Positions 516 to 30,323 of a stretch of DNA of 30,323 nt are shown here, one piece after another (the first letter of the stretch is position 1; each line of letters begins with the position of its first letter). The stretch lies in IMG/VR virus record IMGVR_UViG_3300028025_002014, positions 1-30,323 of that record; one strand, written 5' to 3'. This DNA comes from a virus. Lineage: Duplodnaviria > Caudoviricetes. A program made the position numbers and the translations under genes. A model generated the notes under the pieces. The model did not search any database. It saw only the letters and a list, made by a program, of their open reading frames with translations, and had not been told where the DNA came from.

Positions 516-706
516 TGGACCCACGTGACCGCAGTCTAATTGATCGCTATGGTATAGATCAAACTAGGTATTTTCACCAATTGGCACAGGACCCAAAACT
601 CAACATATTGGATCAACTCAAATACAGTGAGCAGATCAACAGGATTAGATCAAGGTCTAAATTTAGGGCAAAAACACCTATTGCAAATACAGATCAAAAC
701 AGTTAA
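515..706 (+). CDS. Hypothetical protein, 'gene B'
   Basis: TAATG coupling to gene A; homologue at 29826-30014 (LAxDP...LDQxKYSExI). Confidence 0.85.
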   Translation: MDPRDRSLIDRYGIDQTRYFHQLAQDPKLNILDQLKYSEQINRIRSRSKFRAKTPIANTDQNS

Positions 707-714
707 ACTAAATA
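707..714 (+). promoter_or_regulatory. T4-late-type promoter box (ACTAAATA)
   Basis: TAAATA at 709-714, right after the gene B stop and 3 nt before the first stem of the putative small RNA. Confidence 0.55.
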
Positions 715-717
715 TTC

Positions 718-884
718 TGTTGAAGGGCAATTTTCTTTTGTTATCTAATGCCATTGTAATTCCAGGAGCCCTTCAACAACTAGTGGAGTAATTCTCCTTG
801 GAGAGGTTAGCCTGTCAGCAATCAAACATTGTCCCACTAGTTTGAAAACCCCTTAGGTGCAACGCTTAAGGGGTTTTCTCTTTT
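718..884 (+). ncRNA. Putative ~165-nt small RNA with two large-loop hairpins plus terminator
   Basis: Perfect stems TGTTGAAGGGC/GCCCTTCAACA (718-728/768-778) and AACTAGTGG/CCACTAGTT (778-786/834-842), bracketed by a promoter box and a terminator; no credible + strand gene. Confidence 0.65.
844..884 (+). terminator. Intrinsic terminator
   Basis: 12-bp stem GAAAACCCCTTA/TAAGGGGTTTTC (844-855/867-878) followed by TCTTTT. Confidence 0.8.
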
Positions 885-908: not shown

Positions 909-934
909 CCCTTTTGATTCATATATTATAAATA
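909..934 (+). promoter_or_regulatory. Bipartite late-type promoter CCCTTTT-N13-TAAATA
   Basis: Perfect TATAAATA at 927-934; CCCTTTT at 909-915. Confidence 0.7.
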
Positions 935-939
935 CAAAT

Positions 940-1346
940 AACAAACAATTTGACAGGCTGTTTGTAGAAACCATTTCAATCATAAATCTGTCCAGTGAGT
1001 ATCTGCATTATGGCACCATATGGGGGTTAAAACAGGACCCGCCCGTAGTCAATGTCTCACTTGCGAAATAACGAGAATGGCAGAGATTATGTTTATAGAT
1101 GAGTTCCTAAACTAAGTCCGTGCAGGACATGGCAGACATGCCTAAGGTTTAATTCCGTGCTATCTCAGAGGAGAGATGAAAGTCGTAAGGCAAGAGGAAA
1201 GGACAAGACTTATTTGTAAGCAAGACAGAAGCAGTCAAGGGCATAAACATGATAAACCATCGCTTCCAGGAGTTTCAGTCCGCAAGGGCTGTTGCTAATC
1301 TATGAAGATGGGAATGAGGAATTTTAATTTAAATGATTGAATGTTT
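940..1346 (+). ncRNA. Putative ~400-nt structured non-coding RNA of unknown class
   Basis: Closing helix 975-983/1333-1341; internal helices 1087-1096/1243-1252, 1113-1118/1207-1212, 1257-1266/1304-1311; GNRA-capped hairpins 1182-1191 and 1276-1291; G-U pairs fit the + strand; no credible ORF. Confidence 0.6.
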
Positions 1347-10914: not shown

Positions 10915-11388
10915 GTGGCATATATTAATGTATCAGGAAGTGGCGACTTTGCAACACTAGTTGTTAGCACAGCGACCATTACTTCTATTGACACCGCTAC
11001 TCATATTGTTGTTCCTGGAATGCAAAACATTACCCTTAACAATGGTAACGGAGTATTCCGTTGGAAACAATTAGACAGCACAAGCGAATACGCAATCGCG
11101 ATCGCAGCAACCAACCAAGTCTCTATGAACATCGTTCTAGATTCCGCAACCTTCTTTGGTGACGGATCTGGTGAAGATGCTCTAAGCAGAGGCCTGTTTG
11201 ACATCAGCAATGACAAATCATTGGTGCATTTCCGCTTATATTGGAGCGGAACTGGATCTGGTGACAAGTATGTGAGTGGCACTGGCTACTTCACAGGCCT
11301 AGCACCTACTGTCAGTGCAGACCAACCTGTTTGGGTAAGCCCATTGACTATTGACGTCGCTGGTGACTTTACTCCAGGCACAGTTTAA
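10915..11388 (+). CDS. Major tail tube protein
   Basis: GTG start with SD AAGGAG; beta-rich, 157 aa; followed by a terminator and chaperone genes. Confidence 0.75.
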   Translation: MAYINVSGSGDFATLVVSTATITSIDTATHIVVPGMQNITLNNGNGVFRWKQLDSTSEYAIAIAATNQVSMNIVLDSATFFGDGSGEDALSRGLFDISNDKSLVHFRLYWSGTGSGDKYVSGTGYFTGLAPTVSADQPVWVSPLTIDVAGDFTPGTV

Positions 11389-23933: not shown

Positions 23934-26900
23934 ATGTCATTACAGATTAGAAGAGGCTCAACACTACAGCGTTTATCAATCACTCCATTAGTGGGTGAAT
24001 TGATTTTAGATACAGATACCAATGAACTGTTTGTTGGTGATGGCACTACTGTTGGGGGTGTTCTTGTTACAGCACAAAGCACATCAACCTACACATTAAC
24101 CACTGCCACCACAGCCACACTGGGCGGTGTTAAGATTGGCCAAAACATCAACATATCAGCAGATGGAACTATCTCAGTCACAGGTGGCTTTGGTGCTACT
24201 GGTGCTACAGGACCAGCAGGTGCTACAGGTGCTCAGGGCAACATTGGTGCAACTGGTGCTCAAGGCATTCAGGGCGAAACTGGTGCTACTGGACCACAGG
24301 GTGCCACAGGTATTGGAGCAACAGGTCCAGGCTTTGCTGGTCTAACTTCTACCAGTTCTGTAGGTTTGGGCACAGGCTTTAAGACATTTACTGTTAATAA
24401 AGCACTTGGTGAAACTGGCTTCCAATTTGGCAGTGTAATTCGTGCGATTGCTCTAGACAGTCCAAGCAGCAGTTATGGACTTGGCGGTGTAGTCAGTCAA
24501 TTCACTGGCACAAGTTTAACCATTGGCGTTGGTGCAGTCACAGGTAGTGGCACATATTCAAATTGGTCATTTGCATTAACTGGGCTAACAGGTTCTACAG
24601 GACCACAAGGAGCAACTGGAGTTACTGGTGCTACTGGCCAAAGTGGAGATGGATTCCAATGGCGTGGTCTATGGAGTTCAGGCAACAGTTATGAATACCT
24701 AGACTTTGCAGAAAGCACTATTGATGGACAATGGTATTTTGTATTCACTCCAGGTGCAATTGATCCAGAGGACAATGTTGATCCAAGCATTAACAATGCC
24801 AACTGGGCATTGTTAGCACAAAATGGTGCTACAGGACCTACTGGTGCTACAGGTCTTACTGGTAACACAGGTGCTACAGGACCACAAGGTGCAAGCGGCA
24901 TTCAAGGTGAAAACGGACTTACTGGTGCTACAGGACCTCAGGGTGCTACAGGACCAGGAGGCACAGGCTCAGTTGGATCTACAGGTGCAACAGGTATTCA
25001 AGGCGATGTAGGTGCAACAGGAGCACAGGGCTCAACAGGACCACAAGGCGTTCAAGGATCTACTGGATCTACTGGCGTTCGCGGTGGTATTTCCTATCAG
25101 TTCAACACTGCCACAACAGATGCTGATCCAGGCACAGGTAAGTTTGCATTTAACAGCACAACTGCTACTAACATCACTTATTTGTATGTAGATTACAACA
25201 ACCACAATGGCACCAGCATGACTGCTTGGTATGATTCGTGGGATGACAGCAACAGTCCAGTTAAGGGTATGTTGGAGTTTGTCACTACAGACAGTGCAGG
25301 TGGCAACAGTCTTGTATTTGAAATTACTGGTGCAGTTCAAACTGCCAGCGGTTACTACAAGATTCCTCTAGCATGGGTTGGCGGCAATGCCTTACCTGGC
25401 AGCAATGATCTTTGGACCATTGATTTTACACGCACAGGTAACCTAGGTGCAACAGGCCCAACAGGTGCTACTGGAACACAAGGTGTCCAAGGTAGCACAG
25501 GACCACAAGGATCAACAGGACCACAAGGACCTACTGGTGCTACTGGACCAACAGGTGCAACAGGTGCTCAAGGTAATCAGGGATTTAGTTCTGGACGCTT
25601 CTATTACTTCAACCAAACAGTTACTGAAATTGGCAGTTACAAAGAACTTGGACAAAATCCAACTACTGCTACACAGCAGACAGTTACTGTTAGTGCTATT
25701 GGATCTACAAGCACATTGGTTGCAAGTTACATGAGTGATCCATTTGACTTTGAGATCATTCCTGGTGGTGTCCAACAGTTCAACCTACACTTTGCCAAAG
25801 ACAAGGAAGGTGATGATGTTCGTGCATTTGCTCGTTTAAAATTGGCAGCAAATGATGGAACTATTATTTCTACAATTGGTGACACTGCTCTAACAGCCAT
25901 TGCTTGGGATACAAACAATACAACTCCAACAGAGTTATTCACAACAATCACACTGCCAACTACAGACATTGATCCAAGTCAGCGTATGGTTGTTGAAGTT
26001 TGGGTCCTAAACAATAGTGGAACTGCTCCTGTAAATTACTACACAGAAGGCAGTGCTTATTATTCTTATGTAGTCACAACATTAGCAGCAGCCCCAGGAC
26101 CTACTGGTGCAACAGGTGCAACAGGTCTAACTGGAGCCACAGGTAGCCAAGGCGTTCAAGGTGCAACTGGCTCTACTGGCCTAACTGGTGCAACAGGTGC
26201 GGCAGGAACAAATGGTAATGACGGTGCAACAGGTGCAACAGGACCAGTTGGCCCACAAGGTAACTACGGTGCAACTGGAGCAACAGGTCTAACAGGTAAT
26301 CAAGGTTCTACAGGTGCATTTGGATCTACAGGTGCAACAGGACCACAAGGTGTTCAAGGTATTACTGGCGACCAAGGTAGCACAGGTGCTACAGGTCTTA
26401 CTGGATCCACAGGTGCTGCTGGAGCACATGGATCAACAGGTGCAACTGGTATTCAAGGTATTCAAGGTGAAACTGGAGCACACGGATCTACTGGTGCTAC
26501 TGGCCTAACAGGTTCCACTGGTCTAACTGGACAAGTAGGTGCAACTGGACCACAAGGTATCCAAGGAAGCACTGGTGCTACTGGTGAAACAGGACCACAA
26601 GGTAATGTTGGAGCACAGGGTGACCAAGGTGCAACAGGTGCCACTGGCCTAACAGGATCTACTGGTGTTCATGGTGCCACAGGTGCAACAGGCCTAACTG
26701 GTAGCCAAGGTGATCAGGGTGCTACTGGTGCAACTGGACAAACTGGTAATCAAGGTTCTACTGGAGCAACAGGCCCAGGCTTTAATTTAACTTCTACTTC
26801 AGGTCTTGCATTAGGCACAGGAACAAAAACATTTACAGTTAATCTAGACGCCACAGCCAGCGGTTTCAGTGTTGGAACATTGGTCACTGCTATTGCTATT

Positions 26901-28619
26901 GACAGCCCAGGTTCAGCATATGGTATGGGCGGCTATATTATCAGTTATAGCAGCACAAGTCTAAGCATTAGTGTTTCAAGATACACTGGCAGCGGCACAT
27001 ACAGTTCTTGGAAGTTTGTAGTTGCTGGCCTAACAGGTGCAACTGGACCACAAGGATCTACTGGTGCTACAGGACCTACAGGTGCTCAGGGTGATATTGG
27101 TGCAACTGGTGCTCAAGGCGAAATTGGTGCAACAGGTGCCCAAGGTATTCAAGGTAACATTGGTGCTACTGGTGCTCAGGGCGTTCAAGGTGACATTGGT
27201 GCTACTGGAGCACAAGGACCTACAGGTGCTCAAGGCAATATTGGTGCCACAGGTGCTCAAGGCAATATTGGTGCCACAGGTGCCCAAGGTGCTCAAGGCG
27301 ATATTGGTGCTACAGGTGCTCAAGGAACTACAGGTAATCAAGGTGCTACTGGTGCAACAGGCTTAACTGGAGCACAGGGCGATACGGGTGCTACTGGAGC
27401 ACAGGGACCAACTGGACTTACAGGTGCAACTGGAGCACAAGGTGTTCAAGGTGACCAAGGTGCAACTGGATCTACAGGACCAGGATGGGTATTGACCAGT
27501 GCTAGTGAAAACACAATTGGCACAGGAACCAAGACATTCACTGTGAATTTAAGTGCAACTGCAAGTGCATTCCAAGTAGGCAGTATTGTCAGCGTGGCTG
27601 CTATTGGTAGCCCAAGCAATGCCTATGGTATGGGTGGTGTTGTTACTGCATTCAGCGGAACTACACTCAGCATCAATGCAACTTCTACAACTGGCAGCGG
27701 CACATACAGTTCTTGGAACTTTATCCTAGCAGGACGCACAGGTGCTACAGGACCAACAGGTGCTACTGGACCTACTGGTGCAACAGGTGCTCAGGGCGTA
27801 ACTGGCAATGATGGTGCTACTGGTGCTCAAGGAGCCACTGGTATAGGATACAGTCTTGCATCTAGCACTACAATCTCCATGAGCACTGGAACTAAGACAT
27901 TTACCGTTGATAAATCTTCTACTAATTCAGCATTTGTAGTAGGTGATCTTGTTCGTGTTCAATCTAACATATATGAAACTGATTTCATGTATGGTGTAAT
28001 CACAAGTTATAGCGGAACAACATTAGAGATCAACTCAACTTATGCAAGCAGCATTGCTAGTGGCAACGATTGGAGATTTAGATTAACTGGTGAAAAAGGT
28101 GCAACAGGTGCTCAAGGTGCAACTGGACCTACTGGAGCACAAGGCGATATTGGTGCTACTGGTGCAGCGGGCACTAACGGAACTAACGGAGCAACTGGTG
28201 CTACTGGTTTAACTGGAGCATTTGGTGCAACAGGAGCAACTGGCCCAGCAGGATCAAACGGAACTAATGGATCAACAGGTGCAACAGGACCACAAGGTGG
28301 ATTTGCTGGTAGTGAAACACAATACACATGGGGTAACACAGCCGCAGGCACATATACTCCATCAGTAAGTTCTGGAACTGTGCATAAACTAACCTTAACT
28401 GGTAACGTGACAATCAGCAGTCTAAGTGGTGCAGTTACTGGCAGTAACATGACATTGATTCTTGTGCAGGATGCAACTGGTTCAAGAACATTAACATCTA
28501 CTATGAAGTTTGCTGGTGGTGTTAAGACTTTGACCACCAGTGCAAATGCTATTGATGTTGTGACAATCTACTATGATGGAACTAACTACTTGGCTGGTCT
28601 AAGCAGAGGATTTGCATAA
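23934..28619 (+). CDS. Collagen-like long fibre protein with Mtd-N-type N-terminal domain
   Basis: LQIRRG...[18 protein letters not shown]-terminus; extensive GAT/GPQ/GAQ triplets interrupted by globular modules; C-terminal [11 protein letters not shown] domain. Confidence 0.9.
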
Positions 28620-29556: not shown

Positions 29557-29826
29557 ATGACCATACTGGGATCTACTACTAATGAAAAGCGTAGCCTTGC
29601 TGCACACGTAGATTTGTGTGCTCAACGCTATGCTACCCTTGATGAAAGAATGAACAATTTAGAATCAAAAACAGATAAAATTGAAGTAAAGATAGACCGC
29701 ATTGAGGCAAAATTAGACAGTTTTAAGACTGAAATTGCCTGGTTAATTATCAAGGGTGGTGCTGGCCTTATCGTGATGCTTTTAGGTGCTTTAGGTGCCA
29801 TTTCCAAAGTAGCAGGTATTTGGTAA
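29557..29826 (+). CDS. Coiled-coil plus single C-terminal TM protein (holin/XhlA-like)
   Basis: ATG 29557 with SD GAGGA; HVDLCAQRY, heptad repeat, hydrophobic C-terminus. Confidence 0.6.
   Translation: MTILGSTTNEKRSLAAHVDLCAQRYATLDERMNNLESKTDKIEVKIDRIEAKLDSFKTEIAWLIIKGGAGLIVMLLGALGAISKVAGIW
29669..29789 (+). repeat. Exact terminal direct repeat, copy 2
   Basis: Identical to 1-121. Confidence 0.95.
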
Positions 29827-30014
29827 TGGATGTTAGGGACTACTATCTAATAAAACAGTATGGTGAAGAAACTGCACAATATCTATTGATGCTGGCCAAA
29901 GATCCCACAATTGAATTATTAGATCAAATCAAATACAGTGAAGCTATTGGCCAGATACGCAAACGACTTTACTTTAAATCTAAATTGGATTGGAACACTT
30001 GCCCATATCAATAA
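29826..30014 (+). CDS. Gene B' (homologue of 515-706)
   Basis: TAATG coupling; MDVRD...LAKDP...LDQIKYSEAI. Confidence 0.8.
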   Translation: MDVRDYYLIKQYGEETAQYLLMLAKDPTIELLDQIKYSEAIGQIRKRLYFKSKLDWNTCPYQ

Positions 30015-30022
30015 ATTATGAT

Positions 30023-30323
30023 ATGGAGCGAAAAAAGTTTTACAAAATTATTGATCAACTTACCGAACAATGGTATGTTGATGCCAGCAAACCAGTCAAG
30101 GGCGTTTGGGGATCTAGCATCCACGACAAGCGGACTGGCCCACGCCGCAAGACCAACTACAGGGGCGAAGAAAATCCAATTAATGAATCTAGTGGGGAAG
30201 TGCAGATTATCAAGTGGGCCAAAAAATCCGAATTCTGCACTACCTGTTCAAAGTTCTGCGAAGACAAGGTTGAATTGATCAATTTGGAAAAAGCACAAGT
30301 CAAATGCAGTTGTGGCATAAAAT
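30023..30323 (+). CDS. Gene A' (homologue of 174-515), truncated by the window end
   Basis: MERKKFYKIIDQLTEQWYVDASKPVKG...CSCGIK, about 80% identical to gene A by eye; missing from the ORF track because it has no stop. Confidence 0.88.
   Translation, partial: MERKKFYKIIDQLTEQWYVDASKPVKGVWGSSIHDKRTGPRRKTNYRGEENPINESSGEVQIIKWAKKSEFCTTCSKFCEDKVELINLEKAQVKCSCGIK

Follow-up and report, generated by a model that had tools for sequence, protein, structure and literature searches.

The system most like the one described here is SviR, a small RNA of the Vibrio cholerae satellite PLE, which pairs near the ribosome-binding site of the late putative structural gene gp120 of phage ICP1 and has a second seed for PLE's own transcripts (bioRxiv 10.1101/2022.04.08.487710); it is the only satellite small RNA acting against a helper phage that we found in the literature searched. 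The predicted small RNA at positions 719-884 of the window, by which we mean the whole 30,323-nt stretch that was analysed, resembles SviR in that its seed complements, in silico, the site where translation of a late structural gene of the helper begins, the two being likened by function and description and not by sequence. It differs from SviR in carrying its seeds on exchangeable hairpin modules (for sheath, tube and head-operon leader) and in standing behind a T4-type late box. PLE is described there as an integrating element whose DNA travels in altered particles of its helper; the window, in contrast, has its own head and tail genes, no integrase match and no close prophage among GTDB genomes.

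In genome plan the window appears closer to MiniFlayer-type satellite viruses than to PLE. Like MiniFlayer and MulchRoom, satellites of Streptomyces phages, it has its own capsid and packaging genes and no obvious replicase, MiniFlayer also being described without a lysogeny module (PMC10690885, in the part available). Unlike these two it has tape-measure and tail genes, the hosts and helpers differ, and an interference RNA does not appear in the available part of that paper. The nearest GenBank record of like build is the lake phage DSL-LC06 (OR003941; 29.8 kb, 51% terminase identity), which resembles the window in having no replication gene among its 44 annotated CDS, TAAATA boxes before genes and a homolog of the long noncoding region that we call type A, and is unlike it in having no clear two-domain RNA. 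DSL-LC06 was published as an orphan cluster together with 50 uncultivated genomes, and the word 'satellite' is absent from the main text, as far as the available part goes (PMC10611076). A literature search with thin coverage of subscription journals and with supplements excluded returned no paper that treats this family as satellites or describes its RNA. The C-rich-loop small RNAs RsaE, RNAIII and 6C work by anti-Shine-Dalgarno (anti-SD) words on their loops, and the window's RNA is like them in having unpaired anti-SD loop words that may reach several mRNAs; unlike these RNAs, which are chromosomal and, in the sources as available, act on genes of their own cell, it matched no Rfam family at gathering score. 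CRISPR, bridge RNA and TIGR systems have long, variable guides set between repeats and a gene for a partner nuclease or recombinase, whereas here the loop words are conserved and the stems vary, and an HNH gene at 2152 is the only nearby candidate for a nuclease partner.

The window is a whole virus record of 30.3 kb, rated 100% complete, with matches to terminase, portal, scaffold, capsid, tape-measure and tail proteins and a siphovirus-like genome. No polymerase, primase, helicase, sigma or integrase match was obtained (35 ORFs in PHROGs and 26 in Pfam, many small ORFs staying unnamed). About 790 sequence stretches match its terminase patterns, the best 80 being 60-79% identical, and no close prophage was found among GTDB genomes, where the best terminase reaches 47%. 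Nine of the ten TAAATA sites in the window lie on the plus strand, eight of those nine before genes or RNAs, and a strand bias was also seen in 15 of 15 relative loci tallied; the hexamer is unbiased in pelagiphage HTVC111P (37:41) and not clearly biased in DSL-LC06 (9:8). T4 late promoters consist of a -10-like box, have no conserved -35 and are read by gp55 (PMC7892883). The late boxes without a sigma gene, together with a noncoding element common to relatives and giant phages (see below), suggest helper dependence, and the window is likely a helper-dependent parasite of giant phages. Searches with the tail-fibre N-terminus gave no helper clue, BLAST of the small RNA against cultured phages gave nothing relevant, and the ORF upstream of it (174-515) found one weak relative only. 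Other features of the record are a 1561-aa protein with long collagen-like G-X-Y repeats (23934-28619), probably the tail fibre, and its two ends (1-466 and 29669-30315), which are diverged copies (76-96%) of one region and possibly reflect two merged strains or a duplicated module; a homolog of ORF 515-706 sits in different order at the far end of the window. Sigma70-like promoters scoring 10 and 11 of 12 overlap TAAATA boxes at 901-934 and 2098-2126, and these overlaps could provide helper-independent maintenance transcription.

The features of the small RNA locus are collected in Table 1. An 11-bp stem (718-728/768-778) encloses a 39-nt loop (loop 1, 729-767), and a 9-bp stem (778-786/834-842) encloses a 47-nt loop (loop 2, 787-833), A778 being common to both stems. 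The folding of 719-884 gives -60.4 kcal/mol, a value equalled in 0 of 200 shuffles. Perfect 11-bp stems with a 20-60-nt loop occur three times in the window against 0-4 times per shuffled window (8 shuffles), and what goes beyond chance is the combination of tandem stems, box, terminator and recurrence in relatives, not a single perfect stem. In the predicted fold the large loops hold inner structure and are not bare guides: loop 1 folds internally into a hairpin displaying CUAAUGCCAUU (745-755), and loop 2 has an open strand, AGUAAUUCUCCUUG (787-800), plus weak small hairpins. The original prediction, made from the sequence of the window, had named a promoter box, the two stem-loops and a terminator, and all of these are present, with the amendment that, of the promoter elements, the late box TAAATA is the conserved one. 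This box is accompanied by no conserved -35, and the predicted start site lies about 5 nt downstream, as in promoters of the T4 late type. Both hexamers of the overlapping sigma70-like site are kept in the X3 and X4 contigs (one with a C>T change), with a different spacer. Loop 1 is, as was originally read, the reverse complement of a Shine-Dalgarno (SD) sequence followed by ATG GCA TTA, and it has no full match in the window genome (the best is 11 nt), again in line with that reading; the open frame then quoted is not conserved beyond ATG GCA TTA G. The anti-SD foreseen in loop 2 was located as TTCTCCTT at 792-799. A search of sequencing runs found no RNA run with matching sequence among those listed.

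Table 1. Features of the small RNA locus and of the long noncoding region that follows it (window coordinates).
Feature	Position	Strand	Basis and remarks
Weak sigma70-like promoter, TTGCAA-17-TAAACT	681..709	+	8 of 12 by eye; overlaps the late box; missing from the consensus scan
T4-type late promoter core, TAAATA	709..714	+	Predicted start at about G719; strand bias and recurrence in the family
Predicted small RNA (two domains and intrinsic terminator)	719..884	+	Fold, z -5.58
Domain 1, 11-bp closing stem and inner hairpin	718..778	+	Fold; identical in X2 and one X8 contig
Putative anti-tail-sheath seed, open loop 745-755 and 3' arm	745..761	+	Complements the region around the sheath start codon
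Domain 2, 9-bp closing stem	778..842	+	Fold; in an X8 contig a different module follows base 781
Open anti-Shine-Dalgarno strand, UAAUUCUCCUUG	787..800	+	Unpaired in the ensemble; fits AGGAGAA of helper head and sheath genes
CUGUCA module	808..817	+	Loop directed at the helper head-operon leader in relatives; here fits own downstream transcript better
Intrinsic terminator	844..884	+	16-bp stem; hairpin 844-878, U tract to 884
Second TAAATA box and long conserved noncoding region (type A)	929..1345	+	3' limit approximate; RNA-complementary site at 951-960

Relatives of the window carry, at the same place, RNAs of about 80-160 nt with a 7-11-bp closing stem followed by a terminator. A scan with a loop-derived pattern alone returned 27 loci, 19 of which are such RNAs (10 distinct), and TAAATA lies 4-5 nt upstream of the stem motif in all 19. 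When these RNAs are folded singly, the loop words UUGCCAU/CUGCCAU/AGCCAU, CUGUCA, UCCU/CUCCU, GUCAU and GGCAU recur as modules whose order varies between family members; CUGUCA is displayed as a hairpin loop in L028, L037, L042, L050, L073, L105 and L120. In an alignment of 12 L028-type RNAs the stems covary, with 22 cells changed on both sides (a count inflated by relatedness) against 0 of 500 shuffles, and the loop UGCCAU is invariant in 12 of 12. Stem covariation with variable loops had been expected of the relatives; the covariation is there, and it is the loop words that stay constant. A covariance model (R1) built from these 12 RNAs does not detect the window's RNA, so 'family' stands here for shared position, box, architecture and loop words and not for proven homology. 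No such RNA was seen in the DNA examined at the terminase loci L010, L016, L020, L021, L025, L066 and L081, and a metagenome scan found no close relative of the window's RNA except L492, which is identical to it. A further RNA type of about 100 nt, with no TAAATA directly upstream, occupies the same position in L052 (6975-7075), L060, L064, L070 and most of L090-L099, where a covarying hairpin shows UUGUCC(A/G)UUUC.

Exchange of modules is visible among close relatives of the window, on the basis of contigs from 4 of 21 listed sequencing runs, those from X3 and X8 having 30-letter loose ends. In X3 the loop word UAAUGCCAUU is retained with changed flanks, and a C797T variant would still allow pairing with AGGAGAA via G-U. 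One X8 contig is identical to the window up to base 781 and then continues into another module, and a second has a different sequence straight after the same promoter box. The exchangeable parts first suggested from the window are borne out by these contigs, in which domain 2 changes next to an unchanged domain 1, or the whole RNA changes after an unchanged promoter. Of the accompanying idea of guide display, the displayed seeds hold and the 40-nt guides do not, the working parts being 9-17-nt seeds on covarying hairpins.

An 18-nt piece of loop 1 matched six viral records. One of the matches is the start of the clamp-loader gene in a giant that uses TAAATA and is a relative of Pseudomonas phage PA5oct, and the terminase of this giant led to 80 loci of the clade (PA5oct-like giants, about 330-380 kb). 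The long noncoding region of L033, 3' of its RNA, matches G009 (E 3e-15) and G006 (E 2e-14), that is, 2 of 32 giant records, and the long element of L012 matches 5 more giants strongly (of 23 records). This element of about 400 nt (type B), common to several relatives and to PA5oct-like giants, points to the helper clade. It is noncoding and structured, is present in small viruses and in at least seven giant-phage records, and shows compensatory change in 23 of 55 predicted pairs (12 sequences); GAA hairpin motifs follow it, the copy in L033 has no Rfam family, and it may be an origin primer or a new large RNA. Copies lie at L033:926-1330 and L012:3800-4190 and, in giants, at L253:10522-10950 (G006), L286:8690-9134 (G009), L555, L556 and L558. 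The L028-type RNA has no helper copy in 54 giant stretches. The type A element of the window, an 18-nt motif of which recurs in 10 viral records, has no convincing match in 55 giant records, so that the window itself is linked to the helper by kinship (terminase 60-79%), promoters and target matches. Type A contains GNRA-like hairpins (935-1345) and is followed at 1372-1535 by hairpins with CGAAG motifs, origin-like in look.

A late sigma factor is encoded in both giants tested, and the sheaths of two giants tested are 43-44% identical to those of Atu_ph07 and PA5oct/Paride. Target sets were assembled from the best 80 relatives of G006, which are not independent, and comprised 39 sheath, 61 tube and 52 head-operon start regions; TAAATA lies no more than 75 nt away in every one of them, and a leaderless TAAATA-N5-ATG spacing was seen in G001 and G006. 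The background consisted of 1064 other giant-phage genes, with starts from crude first-ATG calls. Energies were calculated with a simplified ungapped-helix model of our own making; after near-duplicates had been dropped, energy tests were run on 14 and match tests on 20 of the 27 extracted RNAs.

When 1145 start regions are compared, the window's RNA has its best unselected two-site matches at the sheath genes of G012 (13 nt over the AUG and 9 nt over the SD) and G006 (10 and 9 nt). By accessibility-corrected helix energy the sheath ranks 1 of 398 in G006, 1 of 61 in G012 and 4 of 124 in G010; its ranks are poor (25/76, 38/92, 144/197 and 111/142) in four giants whose sheath genes start differently. 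The complement of 745-755, AATGGCATTA, starts 12 of 39 sheath genes against 0 of 1064 background genes, and 745-761 matches the L315 sheath start exactly over 17 nt, the best of the 39. Over all 39 sheath starts the mean longest match is 8.2 nt, which 0 of 100 shuffles reached, and 17 of the regions fall in the top 2% of background energies for this RNA; 17 likewise fall in the top 5% of the 131 background genes that also start with ATGGC, and 0 of 150 loop shuffles reached the observed energies. Candidate start-codon-centred targets above chance, which the original prediction called for, are present. The sequence AGGAGAA stands before the gene in 33/39 cases for the sheath, 40/52 for the first head-operon gene, 63/74 for the scaffold-like gene and 41/63 for the capsid, against 29/1064 in the background, a figure that is lowered because the background starts are crude first-ATG calls. 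Two other candidate targets were set aside. The clamp loader of G001 has a 19-nt match, but this gene had been selected by the very search that found the match, the one further clamp loader found starts differently and the extension is lost in X3; the match to gp15 of a classical T4-like record (L109) came from a degenerate pattern and was taken as chance, the PA5oct-like clade giving the better fit. That record has an antisense TAAATA box about 65 nt inside its gp15-like gene (G002:18462-18484, minus strand).

The sister RNAs fit other helper genes. Members with UAUUGCCAU fit the tail tube, placing 41-48 of the 61 tube regions in the top 2% (L023, L028, L033, L068, L119), and for L033, L042, L051 and L119, 13-27 of the 52 head-operon regions do so. 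ATGGCAAT starts 50/61 tube genes (5 of the 1064 background genes) and ATGGCAG starts 30/52 first head-operon genes (12 of the background), these two and AATGGCATTA being the complements of three loop variants. For the protease gene the corresponding counts are 0-2 of 49 with 13 RNAs and 7 of 49 with L119; target enrichment was absent for L079 and L085 and slight for L014 and L092. The hexamer ACAGCC stands just after the late box in 48/52 head-operon leaders against 0/224 other late leaders, and is complemented through the CUGUC loop by L028, L051, L108 and L119 and in another register by L014 and L079, over 11 nt in L014 and L051, 12 in L079 and 13 in L119. In X8 the swapped domain contains UUAGGCUGU, which is complementary to a variant of the leader that 5/52 head operons have; the window's own RNA gave no significant fit to the head-operon 5' end (11 of 100 shuffles). 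An example of such a leader in a giant is L253:18519-18557 (G006), which leads an acidic protein of 270-335 aa; searches returned no name for this first head-operon protein. The GGCAU loop of L092, L095 and L014 is complementary to AUGCCA, the leaderless start of a neck-region virion gene in giants, over 10 nt between L095 and G006, making this gene a possible further target of GGCAU loops.

These data bear on whether the RNA might be a broad translation damper, hitting mainly host mRNAs or any strongly translated mRNAs with AGGAG and AUG GCA, with the giant matches a by-product of common start words. It is true that ATGGCA is the second commonest start among the 1145 giant genes (90), that the anti-SD strand 787-800 ranks unrelated genes first in G008 and G010, and that matches as long as those to the sheath occur at bacterial-looking gene starts; the 18-nt loop 1 piece is shared by 94 metagenome stretches, of which several are such starts and only two are sheath starts, so a long match alone is not specific. 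However, the sheath specificity persists within the ATGGC class, the loop variants map onto three different helper genes of neighbouring function, and ACAGCC is confined to the helper head leader, and we regard a general damper as unlikely.

Regulation in cis deserves the same scrutiny. The RNA could act on the long transcript that follows it, which might be an origin primer or some different structured RNA, in the manner of ColE1 RNA I and RNA II, kissing it via GACAG and UGGCA words. In the window, 808-817 pairs with 951-960 over 10 bp (-11.0 kcal/mol), L042 is alike in this respect, the long region of many relatives has GACAGGC and TGGCA again at its 5' end, and the GAA hairpin motifs come after that region; GACAGGC occurs in 0/52 helper head-operon leaders. 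Against this, CUGUCA is present without an own GACAG after the next TAAATA box in L051, L108, L113 and L119 (L112 also has CUGUCA, with no next TAAATA box in the stretch examined), the flanks in most members fit helper GACAGCC/CA better than own GACAGGC, and loop 1 scores just -1.9 to -4.4 with the own long region. ColE1 RNA I is a cis antisense RNA, transcribed from the strand opposite to RNA II and fully complementary to it, unlike the window's RNA, which lies on the same strand upstream of the long region and shares at most 10 bp with it. As the main role of the RNA, cis regulation seems improbable to us. By analogy with the second seed of SviR, to which the 10-bp fit compares with the reservation that the module is partly paired in the predicted fold of the window's RNA, it may be a second function. 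Avoidance of self targets is incomplete, as the window's own gene in the tail-tube region at 10915 scores -8.1 with the RNA.

The loops also resemble those of tRNAs. The anticodon loops with GCC (Gly) and GUC (Asp) have an invariant U33, and the words UUGCCAU and CUGUCAC look like them, so that the multiple similar loops on variable stems might be decoys, either mimics that draw anticodon nucleases away from tRNAs or a sponge that soaks up some UGYCA-loop-binding protein. We think this very unlikely: the would-be U33 is A in L014, L073 and L092, as expected from wobble in the Ala codon GCA/GCT, the loops are of 10-12 nt, and the modules UCUCCU, GGCAU and AAGGCUG fit helper messages and not tRNAs. 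It is just as hard to believe that there is no functional RNA and only chance inverted repeats or DNA hairpins beside an origin, for although single perfect stems do arise by chance and origin-like hairpins lie nearby, ten distinct relatives have G-U-tolerant covarying stems, fixed loops, box and terminator, and targets are enriched.

We therefore propose that 719-884 is probably a modular antisense RNA of a helper-dependent virus, directed against the late assembly mRNAs of the helper and working like SviR; fold, box, family, covariation, module exchange and target complementarity are all read from sequence and its comparison. The first suggestion of an antisense RNA aimed at translation starts of helper genes gains support from the comparative tests, which point to the sheath start and to AGGAGAA of head genes in PA5oct-like giants. 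A gp55-like late sigma factor of the helper would fire the TAAATA box, switching the RNA on as the late genes of the helper start, and the overlapping weak sigma70 site might permit earlier expression. The 11-nt loop of domain 1 would nucleate on the sheath AUG and zip into the 3' arm, and the open UUCUCCUUG strand would cover AGGAGAA sites. The CUGUCA module would, in most relatives, have been directed against the 5' end of the helper's head operon and, in the window, against the virus's own long transcript. Translation of the helper's sheath, scaffold-like and capsid proteins would then fall and particle assembly would be blocked, with helper replication and late transcription spared for the small virus, which would build its own head and tail.

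On a broader view, to which we lean, widespread 30-kb viruses that do not integrate and encode their full virion would parasitise PA5oct-like giants in the style of virophages: they would borrow the late sigma factor and replisome, some would capture the 400-nt element, and they would fight the giant with an antisense RNA of combinable hairpin modules, passed from one lineage to another and directed at the messages for sheath, tube, neck and head operon, the helper of each virus being readable from its loops. If this is true, it would be a second and apparently independent case after SviR, with named targets, a modular design and a large family, since the stretches that match the window's terminase patterns number about 790 and the helper clade is of even greater size. 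A 2026 review, in the part available, calls it unclear whether more satellites are drawn to large phages (PMC13359090). The present analysis offers a candidate satellite family of giant phages, and with it a sequence rule that would pair a satellite with its helper.
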